From positions 1 through 32,945 of the forward strand of contig JBGCEI010000005.1 of the NCBI GenBank assembly GCA_045106295.1: a stretch of DNA of 32,945 nucleotides. Reading direction: 5' to 3'. Positions 1 through 32,945 of this stretch are shown here, piece after piece. Every line of letters begins with the position of its first letter. The first letter of the stretch is position 1. The position numbers were made by a program, and so were the translations under genes. The stretch is from Cyclobacteriaceae bacterium. GTDB taxonomy: Bacteria > Bacteroidota > Bacteroidia > Cytophagales > JAAEPT01. The notes under the pieces are model-generated. The model searched no databases, had not been told where the DNA came from, and was given only the letters and a program-made list of their open reading frames with translations.

Positions 1-227
1 CTTTAGCACTTAGCCTCTAGCTTTTTTAAAATTAGTATTAGGTAACTAGTATCAGGTATCAAGAATTTAATCTTTGGTATTTACCTTAATTCAAATAATT
101 AAACCTGCTTAAAATTCCTAAATAGTAAAAATAGGCATTCATATCATCAAACCCCAAACTCCAAACCTTAAATTCCAAATTCTAGACTATAAAAATTCTA
201 AATTCTAGTGTCTAAAGTCTTAAAATA
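1..227. repeat. Intergenic tract of about 32 tandem degenerate heptanucleotide units in one register (position 1 mod 7)
   Basis: Read directly. 1-21: ctttagc/acttagc/ctctagc. 29-63: aaattag/tattagg/taactag/tatcagg/tatcaag. 148-224: caaaccc/caaactc/caaacct/taaattc/caaattc/tagacta/taaaaat/tctaaat/tctagtg/tctaaag/tcttaaa. All three blocks keep the same 7-nt phase. The middle part (64-147) is more degenerate. Confidence 0.8.
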
Positions 228-827
228 TCAATGATATTGCTCTCCTGCTCGTACCTCTATGTTTAAAAAATTTTCTCTTGGAGGGATAGGACAACTGTAG
301 CTGCTATTGTAGGCGCAGTAGGGATTTTTAGCTTCATTGAAATCTAATGTTACTTTATTCAGGCTATTGAAATCAATAGCTAAGTAACGGCCTGAAGGAT
401 AAGTAGTTTTCCCAGATGTAATGTCTGAAAAAGGAAGAAAATAATCGTTTTTATCTTCTGAGTTTTGAAGTAAGGTAAGTTGGAAAGGCTGTTTTCCAAT
501 TGAAAATTTGAGTAAAGCGTATTTTATGTAAGTCTTTTGTTCTCCCGTATTAGTAAATAACTCTAACGATTCACTAGTTGATAAAGGAACAACATCTGCG
601 GTAATTAGAAAATTGATGTTAGGTTCAAAATAGTTGATAGGAGAAAAGCTGTTTTTATTTTCTACAGGAGAGCTGCTACTATTAACTAAAAAGAGATTGT
701 ATGCCTTCCAGTAAGCAGCTATTTTTTCTCTGTGAATACCTTGTTGTGAAGAACCACTAAATACATAAATCGAAATAATGGATAGCGCACCAGCGATAAT
801 AAGAAGGGTGAATTTGGGTAGTTTCAT
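228..827 (-). CDS. DUF1684 domain-containing protein with N-terminal signal/anchor helix
   Basis: 199-aa ORF. The C-terminal pattern GRYLAIDFN..AKNPYCAYNSSYSCPIPPRENFLNIEVRAGE matches the DUF1684 hallmark (DFN.A.NP.CAY...CP.PP.eN.l...i.AGE). Hydrophobic N-terminus MKLPKFTLLIIAGALSIISIYVF. Confidence 0.7.
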   Translation of the reverse strand: MKLPKFTLLIIAGALSIISIYVFSGSSQQGIHREKIAAYWKAYNLFLVNSSSSPVENKNSFSPINYFEPNINFLITADVVPLSTSESLELFTNTGEQKTYIKYALLKFSIGKQPFQLTLLQNSEDKNDYFLPFSDITSGKTTYPSGRYLAIDFNSLNKVTLDFNEAKNPYCAYNSSYSCPIPPRENFLNIEVRAGEQYH

Positions 828-3001: not shown

Positions 3002-3100
3002 TAAATCTTTTCGCGCCATTCTACGAAAGTGGAAAAAGGATGCCGAATGAAACTAAAGTATGGTGAAAATATGTTGAATTAGTGGTGCTAAAACTTCTTT

Positions 3101-3256
3101 ATGGATATTTACAAACTAACGTTAATGCATGTGAGTATCCCTTCATTATTAAATAAAGTAAACTACAATAAAAGACTTCAGCAGGCAGAAAAACAGATTT
3201 TGAAAGGAAACATTATTAGTCAAGAAGGCTTAGAGAACGAAGTTGAAAACTGGTAA
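3101..3256 (+). CDS. Small antitoxin-like ORF (51 aa), possibly a remnant
   Basis: My own translation: MDIYKLTLMHVSIPSLLNKVNYNKRLQQAEKQILKGNIISQEGLENEVENW*. The tail (N..f...i..ae..i..G...s.e.l..ei..W) resembles short antitoxins that precede RelE/ParE toxins. Its stop overlaps the next ATG as TAATG. It falls below the ORF-track length cutoff. Confidence 0.35.
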   Translation: MDIYKLTLMHVSIPSLLNKVNYNKRLQQAEKQILKGNIISQEGLENEVENW

Positions 3257-3515
3257 TGAATGATTTTCAAATTATCTGGACAGAGCAAGTAAAACCAGCA
3301 CTCTAAAGTATTATTGAATTGAAAGCATGGTGGGGTATCTAATAAAGTCCTAAATTACTTCATTAATTGATTCCCAGTCTAATAGTGTATTTATCTGTGT
3401 GAGAAAAGTCTTTTTGATCTTTCTCTTGCGTAGATCAGACATATTATCTGCTAAGGTGAGGATTATTTATTTTTGCATAATTGAAAACAACCAATATTCA
3501 GCTATTTTACAATAG
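3256..3515 (+). pseudogene. Decayed RelE/ParE-family toxin gene
   Basis: It reads MNDFQIIWTEQVKPAL*SIIELKAWWGI**. The IIWTE..a...l..I..yl...WG spacing is the typical ParE/RelE N-terminus, but it is broken by an in-frame TAA at 3304-3306 and a double stop at 3341-3346. A possible C-terminal piece, VRIIYFCIIENNQYSAILQ*, lies at 3456-3515 in another frame. Confidence 0.35.
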
Positions 3516-3517
3516 CT
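3500..3517 (-). terminator. Possible weak hairpin downstream of ribBA
   Basis: agctatt (3500-3506) pairs with aatagct (3511-3517) around a 4-nt loop. On the minus strand it is followed by a T-rich but interrupted tract (gaatattggttgttttc). The stem is AT-rich, so support is weak. Confidence 0.25.
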
Positions 3518-3564
3518 CCCTGCAACGGTCTTTAAAAGTCTTACAGCCTAAGAAAAATCTGATG

Positions 3565-17781: not shown

Positions 17782-18933
17782 ATGATGTATCAAGAACTTA
17801 AGGATAAATTCAAGCAACTATTTAATGCTGATCCGGCTTTGTATGCTTCTCCAGGAAGAGTAAATCTTATTGGAGAACACACCGACTACAACGACGGTTT
17901 TGTGTTACCTGCTGCTATTGATAAAAAAGCTGTATTTGCTATTCATTCAAATGGGATGAATGTATGTAGACTACATGCACATGACTTGGACGCTTCTTAT
18001 GAAGTTGATTTATCTCAACTAGAAGTTACTGAAGAGGAAACGTGGGCTAATTACTTAATAGGGGTAATAGCTCAATTCAAAAAAGTTAATCAGGAGATTA
18101 AAGGGTTTGATTGCGTGTTTTCAAGCACCGTTCCTTTAGGAGCAGGTTTGTCTTCTTCCGCAGCTATTGAGTGTGGGTTAGCCTATGCATTAAATGATTT
18201 GTTTAATCATGGAAATGACCGACTGACATTAGTTAAAATGGCACAAAAGGCTGAACATGAGTACGCTGGCGTACAGTGTGGGATCATGGATCAGTATGCT
18301 AGTGTATTTGGTAAAGAGGGACATTTAATCAAATTAGACTGTAGATCTCATCAACACGAGTACATTCCATTTGATTTACCAGACTATAAATTAGTGTTGG
18401 TAAATACGATGGTAACACATTCTTTGGCTTCTTCAGAATACAATACGAGAAGGTTAGAATGTGAGGAAGGCGTTGACGTATTAAAAAAGCATTACCCTGA
18501 AATCAAAAACCTTCGTGATGTGTCGGTAGATATGTTGGAGAAACATAAAGACGAGTTTCAAGGGAAAGTATTTGACCGATGTTGGTATGTGGTGAATGAA
18601 GAAGTTCGTGTAGAATCAGCCTGTAAAGACTTGAAAAATAATAAGCCAAAAGCCTTTGGCGAAAAAATGTATGCGACTCATGAAGGACTAAGTAAGCGGT
18701 ACGAAGTGAGTTGTAAAGAATTAGATTTTTTAGTAGAAGAAGCTAAAAAAAACGATCAAGTATTAGGCGCTAGAATGATGGGCGGCGGCTTTGGTGGCTG
18801 TACTATTAATTTAGTAAATGATACGGGAGTAGAAGAGTTTGTAGCTAATATTGACTTAGCCTATCAAGCTGCTTACCAAGTGAAACCAGAAATTTACATT
18901 GCTCAAATAGCAGAAGGCGCTACTAAACTGTAA
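17782..18933 (+). CDS. galK: Galactokinase
   Basis: 383 aa. Galactokinase signature GRVNLIGEHTDYNDGFVLP. GHMP motif PLGAGLSSSAA. C-terminal GGGFGGC. Confidence 0.96.
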   Translation: MMYQELKDKFKQLFNADPALYASPGRVNLIGEHTDYNDGFVLPAAIDKKAVFAIHSNGMNVCRLHAHDLDASYEVDLSQLEVTEEETWANYLIGVIAQFKKVNQEIKGFDCVFSSTVPLGAGLSSSAAIECGLAYALNDLFNHGNDRLTLVKMAQKAEHEYAGVQCGIMDQYASVFGKEGHLIKLDCRSHQHEYIPFDLPDYKLVLVNTMVTHSLASSEYNTRRLECEEGVDVLKKHYPEIKNLRDVSVDMLEKHKDEFQGKVFDRCWYVVNEEVRVESACKDLKNNKPKAFGEKMYATHEGLSKRYEVSCKELDFLVEEAKKNDQVLGARMMGGGFGGCTINLVNDTGVEEFVANIDLAYQAAYQVKPEIYIAQIAEGATKL

Positions 18934-19000
18934 ACAGTTTAGTAATGAAATAATTAAAAAAAAAATGAATAATTAAGTTGGGAAGTAACGAGGTATTAAA

Positions 19001-19035
19001 GTCTTGATACTTGCTACTTGATACTAATTACTAAA
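19001..19035 (+). repeat. Heptanucleotide array TACTTGN (5 units) directly upstream of the galT start
   Basis: gtcttga/tacttgc/tacttga/tactaat/tactaaa, then aaat, then the ATG at 19040. The reverse complement resembles the tatcagg/tatcaag units at 50-63. Confidence 0.75.
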
Positions 19036-19039
19036 AAAT

Positions 19040-21669: not shown

Positions 21670-22647
21670 CTATTGTCTTATCATCAACGCATATTCCTTA
21701 GCAAAATAAGTCAAGATAATATCAGCACCTGCACGCTTAATGCTGGTGAGTATTTCTATCATTGCTTGTTCGCCATCTATCCATCCTTTTTCGGCAGCTG
21801 CTTTTACCATCGCATATTCACCACTAATGTTGTAAGCAGCAATGGGTAGAGTAGAATTTTGTTTTAAGATGTGAATAATATCTAAATAGGCTAAAGCAGG
21901 TTTTACCATTAAAAAATCAGCTCCTTCCTGAGTATCTAATTCAGCTTCTAATAACGCTTCTGTACTATTTCGGTAATCCATTTGATAGGTCTTTTTATCG
22001 CCACTTTTTGGTGAAGAATCCAAGGCATCTCTAAATGGTCCGTAAAAGCTACTTGCATACTTAGCTGAATAAGACATAATAGCCACATCTGTAAACCCAT
22101 TTTTATCTAATACCTTTCTAATGTAACCTACTCGTCCGTCCATCATGTCAGATGGTCCCAGTAGTTTAGCTCCAGCTTTTGCCTGAGCTAATGCCATGTG
22201 ACCAAGGATTTCTAATGTCTCGTCATTAAGTATGTTATCATCTTCTACTAAACCATCATGCCCATCGCTGCTGTATGGATCCATGGCAATGTCTGTTAGT
22301 AGGAAAATGTCAGTAAAGCGTTCGTGTATTGTTTTTAATGCAGTTAAATACAAACCTTCAGGGTTCATTCCTTCACTAGCAAAGCGATCTTTCTTTTCTT
22401 CACTGATAGCAGGAAAGAGTGCAAACCCTTTAATTCCTAAGTCGAGGCATTCTTGGATTTCTTCTACTAACAGGTCTAGTGAATACCTGAAAATACCAGG
22501 CATAGAATCAATCTCTATTTTTTGATTACTCCCTTCAATAAGAAAAAGAGGAAAGATAAAGTCGTTAAGCGAAATCGTAGTTTCTGCTACTAATTCTCTA
22601 GTGGCGAATGTGGTTCTATTCCTTCTAGGTCTCTGTGTATTCAACAT
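21670..22647 (-). CDS. hemB: Porphobilinogen synthase (delta-aminolevulinate dehydratase)
   Basis: 325 aa, with conserved PBGS blocks throughout. The metal-site segment reads DIAMDPYSSDGHDG, which is the aspartate-rich (non-zinc) variant rather than the Cys-rich DxCxCxY...GHCG. Confidence 0.95.
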   Translation of the reverse strand: MLNTQRPRRNRTTFATRELVAETTISLNDFIFPLFLIEGSNQKIEIDSMPGIFRYSLDLLVEEIQECLDLGIKGFALFPAISEEKKDRFASEGMNPEGLYLTALKTIHERFTDIFLLTDIAMDPYSSDGHDGLVEDDNILNDETLEILGHMALAQAKAGAKLLGPSDMMDGRVGYIRKVLDKNGFTDVAIMSYSAKYASSFYGPFRDALDSSPKSGDKKTYQMDYRNSTEALLEAELDTQEGADFLMVKPALAYLDIIHILKQNSTLPIAAYNISGEYAMVKAAAEKGWIDGEQAMIEILTSIKRAGADIILTYFAKEYALMIRQ

Positions 22648-22651
22648 GTGT

Positions 22652-22682
22652 CAAAACTAGTTGCCCCAAGGTCAAATTCCAA
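22652..22682 (-). promoter_or_regulatory. Candidate hemB promoter (-33 TTG / 20 nt / -7 TAGTTTTG) ending 4 nt before the ATG
   Basis: The minus strand reads TTG-gaatttgaccttggggcaac-TAGTTTTG-acac-ATG. It fits the TTG/TAnnTTTG consensus. The geometry implies a very short or absent leader. Confidence 0.35.
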
Positions 22683-22871
22683 ATTCAAAAAAAAACAAAT
22701 TTCAAAAATGAAAAATAGAGATGGTCTTTGGGGTATGAGGACGAAATAACAAATAACAAAATTCAAACTCCTAATTCTAAAATCCTAAATCAAAATTCTT
22801 AAAATATATTGTCTAATGTCTTAAATCTAAAGTCTACTGTCTCATAATCTCAAAATCACTATCTTTAAAAA
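22664..22871 (+). repeat. Array of about 30 tandem degenerate heptanucleotide units in one register, filling the hemB/ansA divergent spacer up to the ansA ATG
   Basis: ccccaag/gtcaaat/tccaaat/tcaaaaa/aaaacaa/atttcaa/aaatgaa/aaataga/gatggtc/tttgggg/tatgagg/acgaaat/aacaaat/aacaaaa/ttcaaac/tcctaat/tctaaaa/tcctaaa/tcaaaat/tcttaaa/atatatt/gtctaat/gtcttaa/atctaaa/gtctact/gtctcat/aatctca/aaatcac/tatcttt/aaaaa, then the ATG at 22872. RTCT recurs every 7 nt at 22811, 22818, 22825, 22832 and 22839. Confidence 0.85.
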
Positions 22872-23936
22872 ATGTATGCTATTGAGAAAATACTGTTGCA
22901 ACAAACTACTAAACCAACTACTTCTATTTTGGTTATTTACACAGGAGGGACGTTTGGGATGCAATACGATGAGGATGGACAGCTAAAGGCTTCATTTAAC
23001 TTTATGAGTTTAGAGGAGGACCTTCCTGAAATCAATCGTTTGCCAGTAGAATTGTCTATTTTACAAATGCCTCATTTGATTGATTCTTCTGATATGTCAC
23101 CTGCCTATTGGTTGTCTTTGGTTGATATTATTAAACAATATCAGGCAGATTATGATGCTTTCATTATTTTACATGGAACAGATACGATGTCGTACACTGC
23201 TTCCGTCTTGAGCTTTTTGATTCAGTCTTTCCCTAAACCTATTATTTTAACAGGTGCGTTATTGCCCTTAGGGGCAGTAAGAAATGATGCTCGGGAAAAT
23301 CTGATTACTTCCATTGAATTAGCTACAACCAAAAGAGAAAATGGAAAAGCTGCTATTCAAGAAGTAGTGATTTGTTTTAATAACGAGATTATCCGTGGAA
23401 ACCGTTCTACAAAGGTGAATACGGATCATTTTGATGCCTTTGAATCGCCTAATTATCCATTATTGGCAGAAAGCGGTGCTGAAATCATTATTTACGATGA
23501 CGCTCAATTACAGATTGAACCCAAGGAACCTGTATTCCTTTCAGGAATGGAAGAGAATGTATTCTTGATTAGGCTTTTTCCAGGGATTCCGCAAAATGTA
23601 TTAGATGGAGTGTTAGCTATGAAGTTGAAAGGTTTAGTGATAGAAACGTATGGGAATGGTAATATGAGCTCTGAGGCTCGAATAAAGGAATGGGCAAGAG
23701 AGTTGGTGAAACAAGGGGTGTTGGTAGTCTCTATTTCTCAATGTATGCAGGGAACAGTGGAGCAAGGAAAGTACGAAGCAAGCCGTTGGTTGGATCAAAT
23801 AGGTGTAGTAGACGGTAAGGATATGACTGCCGAAGGGGCGCTTACAAAAATGATGATCGTATTAGGAAATTACCCTGTTGAAAACAATAAAGACTATTTC
23901 TTACAATCCATTTGTGGGGAAATAACAATTTCTTAA
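22872..23936 (+). CDS. ansA: L-asparaginase, type I (cytoplasmic)
   Basis: 354 aa. N-terminal IYTGGTFGM (the TGGT active-site motif), then HGTDTM. Length and lack of a signal peptide fit type I. Confidence 0.9.
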   Translation: MYAIEKILLQQTTKPTTSILVIYTGGTFGMQYDEDGQLKASFNFMSLEEDLPEINRLPVELSILQMPHLIDSSDMSPAYWLSLVDIIKQYQADYDAFIILHGTDTMSYTASVLSFLIQSFPKPIILTGALLPLGAVRNDARENLITSIELATTKRENGKAAIQEVVICFNNEIIRGNRSTKVNTDHFDAFESPNYPLLAESGAEIIIYDDAQLQIEPKEPVFLSGMEENVFLIRLFPGIPQNVLDGVLAMKLKGLVIETYGNGNMSSEARIKEWARELVKQGVLVVSISQCMQGTVEQGKYEASRWLDQIGVVDGKDMTAEGALTKMMIVLGNYPVENNKDYFLQSICGEITIS

Positions 23937-23996: not shown

Positions 23997-24083
23997 AGAG
24001 AGGTGTCCGAGTGGCTTAAGGAGCACGCTTGGAAAGCGTGTAAACTCGCAAGGGTTTCGAGGGTTCGAATCCCTCTCTCTCTA
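23997..24083 (+). tRNA. tRNA-Ser (anticodon GGA), class II with long variable arm
   Basis: Hand fold. Acceptor AGAGAGG/TCTCTCT (G7-U66 wobble). D arm TCC-GAGTGGCTTAA-GGA. Anticodon stem CACGC/GCGTG with loop TTGGAAA. 18-nt variable arm. T arm GAGGG-TTCGAAT-CCCTC. CCA is not encoded. The ends are good to about 1-2 nt. Confidence 0.9.
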
Positions 24084-24118
24084 CGGACAGTAAAACATTA
24101 ATTTGAATTTAATATAAA

Positions 24119-32140: not shown

Positions 32141-32291
32141 GTTTAAGACTTTGAGACGTTAGATACTAGACATTAGATTTGAGGTATGAGTTTACCTTGC
32201 CTGCCGCAGTCACGGTTAGGCTCTAGAGTCGTTGTACTTAATACCTGGGATATTGTACTTTATTCATTGTTAATTATCAATTATTCATTAC
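32141..32291 (-). repeat. Heptanucleotide-register tract filling the whole spacer between the K+ channel stop and the CrtI-family start
   Basis: Plus-strand units from 32141: gtttaag/actttga/gacgtta/gatacta/gacatta/gatttga/ggtatga/gtttacc/ttgcctg/ccgcagt/cacggtt/aggctct/agagtcg/ttgtact/taatacc/tgggata/ttgtact/ttattca/ttgttaa/ttatcaa/ttattca/ttactta. The reverse complement of 32141-32190 carries RTCT words (atct/gtct/atct/gtct/gtct) spaced 7, 7, 7 and 8 nt, ending at the ATG. Confidence 0.8.
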
Positions 32292-32945
32292 TTAAAGTTT
32301 GTGTCCACAATACTTACAATACTCAGCATCCTTATCATGTCCCTCTTCGCTACAGTTTTTACAAGATTGGGTACTGACAACTGTTTTTTTAATGATTTCA
32401 CCCGTTACTATTCCTGTAGGAACAGCAATAATAGCATAACCAGCAATCATAATAATGGAAGCTACCAGTTGTCCTAATGGAGTTACGGGAGAAATATCTC
32501 CGTAACCAACAGTAGTAAGTGTAACAATAGCCCAGTAAATACTATGTGGAATGCTATCGAAGCCAGAGTCGCTCTTTCCTTCTATTAAATACATAAGAGA
32601 CCCGAAAATGCTCACTAGAATGACGATGAAAATCATGAAGACAATAATCTTTGCTTTACTTGCCTTTAATGCAGACATAATTAGTTGTCCTTGAGATAAG
32701 AAATTAGCTAGCTTAAATATTCTGAATACACGTAGTAAACGCAATCCTCGGATAATCATTAATGATTGCCCACCAACTATAAAGAAAGACAATAGAGTAG
32801 GAAGGATGGATAGTAAGTCAACTATTCCAAAGAAGCTAGTCGCATATTTGATTGGTTTGTGAGTACAGTACAAGCGTAAAACATACTCTGCTAGAAAGAA
32901 AGCTGTAAAAATCCATTCCAAGTGAGTAAACCACGACCCAAAGAA
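32292..32945 (-). CDS. Voltage-gated-type K+ channel (ion transport protein), 5' end outside the window
   Basis: S4-like RGLRLLRVFRIFKLANF. Selectivity filter TTVGYGD. Cys-rich C-terminal tail CKNCSEEGHDKDAEYCKYCGHKL. The track start at 32921 is a TTG codon, and the frame stays open to the window edge (..FFGSWFTHLEWIF), so the gene is partial. Confidence 0.85.
   Translation of the reverse strand, partial: FFGSWFTHLEWIFTAFFLAEYVLRLYCTHKPIKYATSFFGIVDLLSILPTLLSFFIVGGQSLMIIRGLRLLRVFRIFKLANFLSQGQLIMSALKASKAKIIVFMIFIVILVSIFGSLMYLIEGKSDSGFDSIPHSIYWAIVTLTTVGYGDISPVTPLGQLVASIIMIAGYAIIAVPTGIVTGEIIKKTVVSTQSCKNCSEEGHDKDAEYCKYCGHKL

Follow-up and report, generated by a model that had tools for sequence, protein, structure and literature searches.

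A degenerate heptanucleotide repeat array in the hemB/ansA spacer of a Bacteroidota contig

The spacer between the divergent genes hemB and ansA, on a contig from an uncultured member of the Bacteroidota, can be parsed by eye into consecutive units of 7 nucleotides (nt), which raises the question of whether these units form a genuine repeat array and, if they do, how the array arose and what it does. The window analyzed was one entire contig of 32,945 nt with 18 intergenic regions. The spacer occupies 22648-22871 and is AT-rich (27% GC); it measures 224 nt, not the 208 nt given by an earlier sequence-only reading of this DNA, in which the array was proposed.

Periodicity and anatomy of the spacer

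Lag-7 identity across the spacer was 108/217 (0.50), compared with 0.32 in shuffled sequences (z = 6.3). When dinucleotide-preserving shuffles were used, z scores of 5.9 at lag 7 and 4.6 at lag 14 were obtained, and adjacent units parsed from 22664 differed by a mean of 3.29 nt, compared with 4.74 +/- 0.22 nt after shuffling. Tandem Repeats Finder independently reported period 7 and period 14 at 22744-22836, and a 14-nt superperiod is present in the array. With the threshold fixed at 20 or more matches in 28 positions at a given lag, and with lags 4-12 scanned, lag 7 was the sole lag that yielded arrays in the window; all of the lag-7 segments (7/7) were intergenic, despite 90% of the window being coding.

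AT-rich spacer DNA such as this can be over-parsed when it is read by eye, and the pattern might have been a product of chance or composition. The z scores of about 6 relative to mononucleotide as well as dinucleotide shuffles, the failure of any other lag from 4 to 12 to reach the array threshold anywhere in the window, and the absence of a lag-7 signal from the other 14 intergenic regions of the contig, which are also AT-rich, leave that explanation with practically no probability. The shuffle scores and the lag-specificity scan refute it. Thus, the claim of a heptanucleotide periodicity stands, both in comparison with shuffled sequence and in the occurrence of comparable arrays, which are found in three more of the 18 intergenic regions.

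What the sequence-only reading had said the array is not was borne out as well. It is not coding, as stop codons occur in all six frames of its core (3-7 per frame, and 3-4 in the ansA-sense frames), and the single ATG in the array (22816) is followed immediately by a stop codon. It is not a CRISPR, in which repeats of ~24-48 nt alternate with unique spacers of similar length, whereas the 7-nt units here are contiguous. Nor is it a classical perfect microsatellite: the units drift, core neighbors mostly differing by 2-3 nt, and no perfect run is longer than 2.4 units.

The spacer and the genes on either side of it are made up as follows.

21670-22647, minus strand: hemB (porphobilinogen synthase/ALAD), left flank; Pfam PF00490, E = 1.6e-136, and open reading frame (ORF)
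22671-22691, plus strand: left mini-array, GTCAAAT TCCAAAT TCAAAAA; 22664-22698 in the core register (p = 0.0005), lag-7 z = 3.1, 71% similar to 161-202
22699-22740, plus strand: central island, G-richer and largely non-repeat; core profile match absent (p = 0.75), no Rfam match
22741-22761, plus strand: sub-block B, AAATAAC type, ACGAAAT AACAAAT AACAAAA; Tandem Repeats Finder period 7, 2.4 copies, 100% match
22762-22803, plus strand: sub-block C, TCNTAAA type with the 14-nt superperiod, TTCAAAC TCCTAAT TCTAAAA TCCTAAA TCAAAAT TCTTAAA; 77% similar to 194-228
22804-22810, plus strand: off-type unit ATATATT, exactly 7 nt, from the unit parse
22811-22845, plus strand: sub-block D, GTCTAAT type, GTCTAAT GTCTTAA ATCTAAA GTCTACT GTCTCAT; Tandem Repeats Finder period 7, neighbor distances 2-3
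22846-22871, plus strand: out-of-register tail TCACTATCTTTAAAAAATG, with six A's directly before the ansA ATG; lag-7 identity 4/19 (z = -1.4), register offset
22872-23936, plus strand: ansA (type I L-asparaginase), right flank; Pfam PF00710 and PF17763 (asparaginase N- and C-terminal domains)

The register is kept over 22664-22845, or 26 units, and is strong in about 20 of them; clear units are found at 22671-22691 (three) and 22741-22845 (fifteen, one of them off-type). A periodic profile taken from 22762-22845 fitted 22664-22698 in the same register, which means that phase-locking between the left mini-array and the core extends across 91 nt. Within the core, the three sub-blocks pass from AAATAAC through TCNTAAA to GTCTAAT in a single register, which is preserved across ATATATT because this unit has the length of the others. 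In the middle of the spacer, 22699-22747 displayed a weak residual periodicity (lag-7 z = 2.3), and the register breaks at 22713/22720 and 22734/22741, where neighbors differ at 6 of 7 nt. The description of the whole spacer as one phase-locked array is not supported: the period is strong and the register is kept over 22664-22845, but it breaks at these two points. The figure of about 30 units was too high, and the array does not extend to the ansA ATG as had been proposed, since the register is gone after 22845, 26 nt short of it.

On the ansA sense strand, the core consists of 45% A, 32% T, 18% C and 5% G, compared with 13% G in upstream regions generally, and 22744-22810 form a 67-nt G-free run, the longest in the window. 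The predicted RNA fold of 22741-22890 has an energy of -3.8 kcal/mol; dinucleotide shuffles fold about equally (z = +0.7), and the low folding energy is thus attributable to base composition. Neither strand of the spacer folds better than shuffles. Nothing credible was matched by Rfam in the spacer, whether at the gathering threshold or with E values up to 1, and the only above-gathering match in the window was a tRNA-Ser. No intrinsic terminator was found in the spacer, and no inverted partner array with which a hairpin could form, there being just a weak 11-nt pairing across the ATG. The G-quadruplex type of heptamer repeat (GGGAATC, PMC4692102), with a G-run in each unit, does not describe the core, given its G content and its G-free run.

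The sequence-only reading had also placed the far end of the array over a candidate hemB promoter, of which one element was located in the spacer.

22652-22659, minus strand: candidate Bacteroidota -7 box TAGTTTTG for hemB, 4 nt from the ATG; the sole exact TAnnTTTG in the spacer

Unit 22678-22684 contains a TTG 20 nt upstream of TAGTTTTG, so that the left mini-array plausibly supplies the -33 TTG of this candidate promoter. The overlap is plausible to that extent, but TAnnTTTG occurs 35 times in the window, where 48 occurrences are expected, and because it is no commoner there than in shuffles it argues only weakly for a hemB promoter. Each of the divergent genes has a -7-box-like octamer 4 nt from its ATG, in the arrangement TAGTTTTG-ACAC-ATG for hemB and TATCTTTA-AAAA-ATG for ansA. 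If both boxes were used at this distance, the transcripts of hemB and ansA would have no leader or hardly any, an uncommon arrangement in Bacteroidota.

Heptamer arrays on the contig and in other genomes

Lag-7 arrays were detected in 4 of the 18 intergenic regions, a count that applies to the 33 kb of the genome sampled here. Beyond hemB/ansA, the regions are 1-227 (z = 5.3), 18934-19039 (z = 3.6) and 32141-32291 (z = 5.4), and they hold the following arrays.

1-63, plus strand: heptamer units at the contig end, CTTTAGC ACTTAGC CTCTAGC and TAGTATT AGGTAAC TAGTATC AGGTATC
148-228, plus strand: related array, CAAACCC CAAACTC CAAACCT TAAATTC CAAATTC ... TCTAAAT TCTAGTG TCTAAAG TCTTAAA, antisense to the 3' end of a DUF1684 gene
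19004-19031, plus strand: TTGATAC TTGCTAC TTGATAC TAATTAC in the galK-galT spacer, ending 8 nt before the galT ATG; z = 3.6
32148-32189, minus strand: TCATACC TCAAATC TAATGTC TAGTATC TAACGTC (gene sense), ending 7 nt before the start (32140) of an amine-oxidase/phytoene-desaturase-like gene; z = 5.4
32260-32290, plus strand: TTGTACT TTATTCA TTGTTAA TTATCAA TTATTCA, directly after the stop of an ion-channel gene (32292-32921, minus strand)

The array at 148-228 resembles the spacer itself, with 42 nt at 71% identity to 22665-22706 and 35 nt at 77% identity to 22773-22807. The core of the ansA spacer is sense to ansA and ends 26 nt from its ATG, and the galT and oxidase-gene arrays end 7-8 nt from their starts. 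A perfect 11-nt inverted repeat, TACTAAACTGT/ACAGTTTAGTA with a 2-nt loop, spans the galK stop at 18921-18944, a short distance 5' of the TTGATAC array and of galT. The first letters of the contig already belong to heptamer arrays (1-63 and 148-228), and several public contigs with TCTAAAN matches (L097, L140, L149 and L161) likewise begin or end within an array. Contigs that end in arrays suggest that the repeats break short-read assemblies and are present in many copies in genomes.

Proteins encoded around the spacer are Bacteroidota-like, with their best named matches in the Cytophagales (Reichenbachiella, Flexibacter, Fulvivirga and Cyclobacteriaceae). The top identity of AnsA was 53% in a collection of 5.8 billion proteins and 46% among GTDB r232 species genomes, in which the nearest genomes by AnsA were mostly Cytophagales or other Bacteroidota. 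No second copy of the contig or close relative was found by exact DNA match, by exact-protein look-ups for hemB and ansA, by the AnsA-based GTDB scan or by a JGI metagenome scan, and the lineage of the window, judged from these searches, appears unsampled. A tRNA-Ser(GGA) lies at 23997-24084, between ansA and exbB, and the order ansA, tRNA-Ser, exbB, a gene of 137 amino acids (aa), exbD, exbD is kept in two relatives, L001 and L084. Two other intervals of the window, 1624-2257 (634 nt) and 3002-3564 (563 nt), lack any ORF of 90 aa or more, show no heptamer periodicity and gave no Rfam match at the gathering score; small genes or unknown RNAs may be present there.

In the nearest contigs (L001 and L002), in which AnsA is 53% identical and the ansA-tRNA-Ser-exbB-exbD synteny is kept, heptamer arrays are also found upstream of ansA, and the array 5' of ansA in L001 includes an AAATAAC-type unit, as in sub-block B. 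GTCTAAT, the unit of sub-block D, also forms an array in a Saccharicrinis metagenome-assembled genome (L048). The species represented by L084 has an AnsA 89% identical to that of L001, and alignment of their orthologous ansA-tRNA spacers revealed 2-3 units of AGTACAA in L001 and 11 in L084, which has about 290 nt more array DNA. This difference is direct evidence of unit-number change over time. Before the tRNA-Ser, both of these contigs, and L002 as well, contain an octamer array (GTCTTAAA GTCTTATA ATCTCAAA ...; 11161-11259 in L001 and 1782-1850 in L084). This octamer array is nearly base-for-base equal in L001 and L084 while the adjacent heptamer arrays expand, and its units resemble the GTCTAAT and GTCTTAA heptamers of the window.

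The comparison was extended to 80 diverse ansA loci of Bacteroidota (1.285 Mb) under the same array threshold. This set yielded 53 arrays at lag 7 and at most 13 at any other lag from 4 to 12, and its units were diverse, including AATTGAG, CAACTAT, AATTACG, TAACTGA type, AAATCTA and GTCTAAT. Pairs of arrays that share a unit include window 22744/L001, window 22810/L048, L012/L045, L041/L045, L047/L079 and L027/L040. Inverted pairs, in which an array is followed by its reverse complement, are common (L074 20060-20160; L027 8596-8706; L064 677-775; L024 5931-6105; L001 9799-9856; L139; L128). By their sequence, such pairs could form long RNA hairpins or DNA cruciforms; inverted pairs have also been noted for the GGGAATC repeats of Xanthomonas (PMC4692102).

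The main unit of the window is TCTAAAN, and its family, TCTAAAN/TCAAAAN, is common to many Cyanobacteria and Bacteroidota. A scan of GTDB genomes for 3.5 tandem copies of TCTAAAN (TCTAAANTCTAAANTCTAAANTCT) returned at least 120 stretches. Among the 120 matches listed, 79 (~66%) were cyanobacterial, a share inflated by many Microcoleus species genomes, 26 (~22%) were from Bacteroidota and 15 from other taxa. The cyanobacterial carriers listed are Microcoleus, Nostoc, Calothrix, Okeania, Richelia and others; those listed in Bacteroidota are many Flavobacterium, together with Cyclobacteriaceae, Prevotella and Bacteroidaceae. When TCTAAA cores 0-2 nt apart were counted in the same part of the database, with an equal chance expectation for all three periods, spacing at 7,7 was found in 82 loci, compared with 10 at 8,8 and 3 at 6,6.

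Orientation was scored among the matches listed, for 103 arrays of Bacteroidota and Cyanobacteria with enough flanking sequence. A long-ORF ATG lay within 20 nt of the array in 35 cases in the sense (downstream) direction and in 3 cases in the antisense direction, whereas for single TCTAAA hexamers, counted within 40 nt upstream of 1112 putative starts, the division was only 30 sense to 21 antisense. Near gene 3' ends, 5 arrays were sense and 17 antisense, and the window array at 148-228 follows this antisense orientation. In Flavobacterium, including cultured species, TCTAAAA arrays stand directly before start codons, and several of the Flavobacterium arrays have an inverted GATTTTT-type partner upstream. 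Cultured carriers of TCTAAAA arrays include F. defluvii DSM 17963, F. hydrocarbonoxydans GA093, F. panici, F. tistrianum and F. daemonense.

Origin and role of the array

We consider it probable that the array is a degenerate heptamer repeat of the short tandemly repeated repetitive (STRR) or long simple sequence repeat (long SSR) kind, which originated by slippage and drift and serves passively as leader or spacer. Short A-rich seeds in the spacer would have been expanded by slipped-strand mispairing, with whole units and two-unit blocks gained or lost. Point mutation would then have caused the units to drift, while indels in multiples of 7 would have kept the register, leaving three sub-blocks in one phase. 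The sequence-only reading had likewise proposed heptamer duplication followed by drift, which fits the one-register sub-blocks, the 14-nt superperiod and the unit-number difference in an orthologous spacer of related species. If transcribed, the array would form a G-free, A-rich, stop-rich and essentially unstructured Shine-Dalgarno-independent leader or spacer for ansA, and not a specific switch. Bacteroidetes are reported to lack Shine-Dalgarno sequences and to depend for initiation on low mRNA structure and an A at -3, with A at both -3 and -6 described as positive determinants (PMC6847099). A structure-free, Shine-Dalgarno-independent leader is what Bacteroidota ribosomes favor; our best guess, a weak one, is that such a leader or spacer may be tolerated or mildly favored upstream of ansA.

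Several observations weigh against slippage and a passive role as the full account. The preference for 7 nt is left without explanation, and the repeat arrangement was rejected as the cause of the low structure (z = +0.7). Upstream of the array, the spacer contains no convincing -7/-33 pair for an ansA promoter; the sole near-consensus plus-strand -7 box, TATCTTTA at 22860-22867 (one mismatch), is 3' of the array, so that with this box in use the array would be upstream DNA and not leader. Three samples of the L084 species displayed no unit-number polymorphism, their arrays being identical. Of 62 arrays of all unit types, 18 come to an end no more than 15 nt from the ATG of a long ORF, and 23 are equally close to the stop of one; stops are thus abutted as often as starts, and as a class the arrays are not dedicated leaders. 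A general start-codon preference of heptamer arrays was accordingly not found when unit types were pooled. Identical consensus units were shared between unrelated Bacteroidota lineages in 9 pairs, with 3.2 expected and a maximum of 8 in 200 composition-matched shuffles, and this modest excess of exact identity goes beyond pure local slippage; pairs within one mismatch across lineages were not enriched (57, with 57.7 expected). Finally, TCTAAAN arrays are biased toward sense near starts and toward antisense near 3' ends, which could reflect selection for function instead of passive tolerance.

The orientation and period statistics give some weight to an RNA cis element, in which 7-nt sites on the ansA leader would be occupied by a protein with affinity for single-stranded RNA, such as bS1 or one with a cold-shock domain, which would recruit ribosomes or keep the RNA open where Shine-Dalgarno pairing is little used. 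The specificity for period 7 and the 35-to-3 sense orientation at starts of the arrays listed, set against 30 to 21 for single hexamers, are in its favor, as is the recurrence of TCTAAAN units in Cyanobacteria and Bacteroidota, two phyla with low Shine-Dalgarno usage. Binding by S1, Csp or CsrA has been proposed for TAACTGA repeats (MacGregor 2015, PMC4679880), and in a preprint on Nostoc 7120 the TTCAAAA/TTTTGAA repeats are reported to occur near starts genome-wide and their deletion to alter reporters (10.1101/2022.06.06.494920). However, units vary widely between arrays (AATTGAG, CAACTAT, AATTACG, TTGATAC and others), so that no single sequence-specific protein fits all of them; many arrays adjoin stop codons or sit mid-spacer, the array in the window has degenerate units and stops short of the ATG by 26 nt, and no binding protein has been named in any organism. 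We regard an RNA element as unlikely here, if far from negligible. Its broader form, in which heptamer arrays would be conserved Shine-Dalgarno-independent initiation leaders of Cyanobacteria and Bacteroidota read by an OB-fold RNA-binding protein (cold-shock-domain or S1-type) with a 7-nt footprint, would explain the period, the sense orientation at starts and the cross-phylum recurrence of units together, and is a speculative proposal with a rather small chance of being right.

A promoter element acting as DNA, with AT-rich heptads bound by a nucleoid-associated protein or transcription factor that controls the hemB and ansA promoters, would suit the position of the array in the promoter region of two divergent genes. 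The left mini-array covers the -33 position of the candidate hemB promoter, the repeats create three minus-strand sigma-70-like hexamer pairs where 1.1 are expected, and TCAAAAT, one of the units, is close to ATCAAAA, which complements the TTTTGAT heptad of ctxAB, at which ToxT and H-NS are involved. The ctxAB heptads are reported to recruit transcriptional regulators, and their copy number has been studied in relation to promoter activity (10.1101/2021.05.14.444153), and in Nostoc deletion of the recO repeat changed the effects of NtcA and LexA (10.1101/2022.06.06.494920). A double-stranded DNA site would not be expected to show a strand bias at starts that is reversed at 3' ends, and this strand-specific bias makes a DNA-level role less likely. 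Moreover, a 7-bp spacing puts successive sites on different faces of the helix, units are diverse between arrays, and arrays are also present after stops and between genes of one operon that run in the same direction (galK-galT). We consider control at the DNA level improbable. The same 7-bp step, which turns each unit by 240 degrees relative to the one before it along the helix, makes the phased DNA geometry suggested by the sequence-only reading unlikely, and curvature from 21-nt phasing was rejected on geometry. Even less probability attaches to a contingency (phase-variation) locus in which unit number tunes ansA or hemB, after the manner of the hmw (ATCTTTC)n tracts; a heptamer SSR in the 5' untranslated region (5'-UTR) is a proven tuner in Haemophilus influenzae (PMC12721329), and a difference in unit number between related species is seen at a second spacer (AGTACAA, L001/L084). 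Slippage needs near-perfect repeats, whereas perfect runs here reach at most 2.4 units and neighbors are mostly 2-3 nt apart, and natural hmw tracts have 11-63 repeats (PMC12721329). The units are too degenerate for such a role, and the suggestion that the array is a fossil contingency locus also fares poorly for want of a longer perfect run; furthermore, hemB and ansA are housekeeping genes, the arrays of the L084 species are identical in three samples, and there is no complementary partner for an hmw-type hairpin.

The locus favored here as a product of slippage is an ordinary one, being a repeat of slippage type between two housekeeping genes of an uncultured Bacteroidota, and its significance lies in the class. 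The 82/10/3 distribution of periods 7, 8 and 6, a unit common to two phyla and the orientation bias all speak against pure junk. The TCTAAAA arrays before starts in cultured Flavobacterium make the class experimentally approachable, and for F. johnsoniae reporter and ribosome-profiling methods exist (PMC6847099).

Comparison with known heptamer repeats

Heptanucleotide arrays were first described in cyanobacteria about 1990, and the spacer array is a further example of a class already known as STRR, long SSR and TAACTGA-type intergenic heptamer repeats. Classical STRR units, such as CCCCAGT, are GC-richer and nearly perfect. The arrays described here are like STRRs in their 7-nt head-to-tail units, their intergenic position, the presence of several unit families per genome and their dispersal over many loci. 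They differ in that the host of the window is a member of the Bacteroidota and not a filamentous or heterocystous cyanobacterium, and in that the units are A/T-rich TCTAAAN, degenerate and drifting. The parallel with cyanobacterial STRRs drawn by the sequence-only reading has nevertheless proved closer than claimed, as tandem TCTAAAN arrays are abundant in filamentous cyanobacteria and in Bacteroidota. Three tandemly repeated heptanucleotides have been reported from Calothrix PCC 7601, according to the account given of them in PMC4692102.

Heptanucleotides are the most abundant class of long SSR in bacteria, and polymerase slippage has been conjectured as their cause (Mrazek et al. 2007, as cited in PMC4679880 and PMC4692102). 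This abundance agrees with the counts obtained here, with 53 lag-7 arrays and at most 13 at other lags. Long SSRs (units of 5-11 nt) share with the spacer array the predominance of heptamers, the intergenic position and a proposed slippage origin, but they are defined on near-perfect, over-long runs, so that the window array, whose units have diverged, qualifies partly.

The view that no such arrays had been described in Bacteroidota was mistaken, as intergenic heptamer repeats have been reported in five Bacteroidetes (MacGregor 2015, PMC4679880). The TAACTGA repeats of that study resemble the present arrays in being intergenic heptamers in a setting of few Shine-Dalgarno sites, and in their phyletic spread over Cyanobacteria and Bacteroidetes. 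They are mostly forward and near start codons, to which the window arrays come close in differing degree (26 nt for the ansA core, 7-8 nt for galT and the oxidase gene). TAACTGA also occurs in Beggiatoaceae, and spacers of Gramella and Aequorivita hold other heptamer repeats (PMC4679880). TAACTGA sets are mostly short and perfect, with 2-6 copies, whereas the window array has about 20 recognizable degenerate units, and no TAACTGA array was found in the window with up to 2 mismatches (TAACTGATAACTGA).

The TTCAAAA/TTTTGAA repeats of Nostoc PCC 7120 (10.1101/2022.06.06.494920) are cyanobacterial, and deletions are reported to have altered reporter expression there. They have units nearly equal to TTCAAAC, TCAAAAT and TCAAAAA of the spacer, they lie near start codons and promoters, and a regulatory role is suspected for them. 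The (ATCTTTC)n tracts of H. influenzae hmw1A/hmw2A (PMC12721329) are heptamer tandem repeats that are transcribed in the 5'-UTR and influence expression; their 11-63 highly conserved, hypermutable units, RNase III hairpin with a downstream G-rich region and surface adhesin product have no counterpart in the window array. The TTTTGAT repeat of Vibrio cholerae ctxAB is likewise an AT-rich 7-bp promoter tandem repeat, with a unit that resembles the complement of TCAAAAT. Across genomes, TCTAAAN arrays display a strand-specific bias that points to a constraint dependent on the strand, whereas the ctxAB repeat consists of few perfect copies that act as double-stranded regulator sites.

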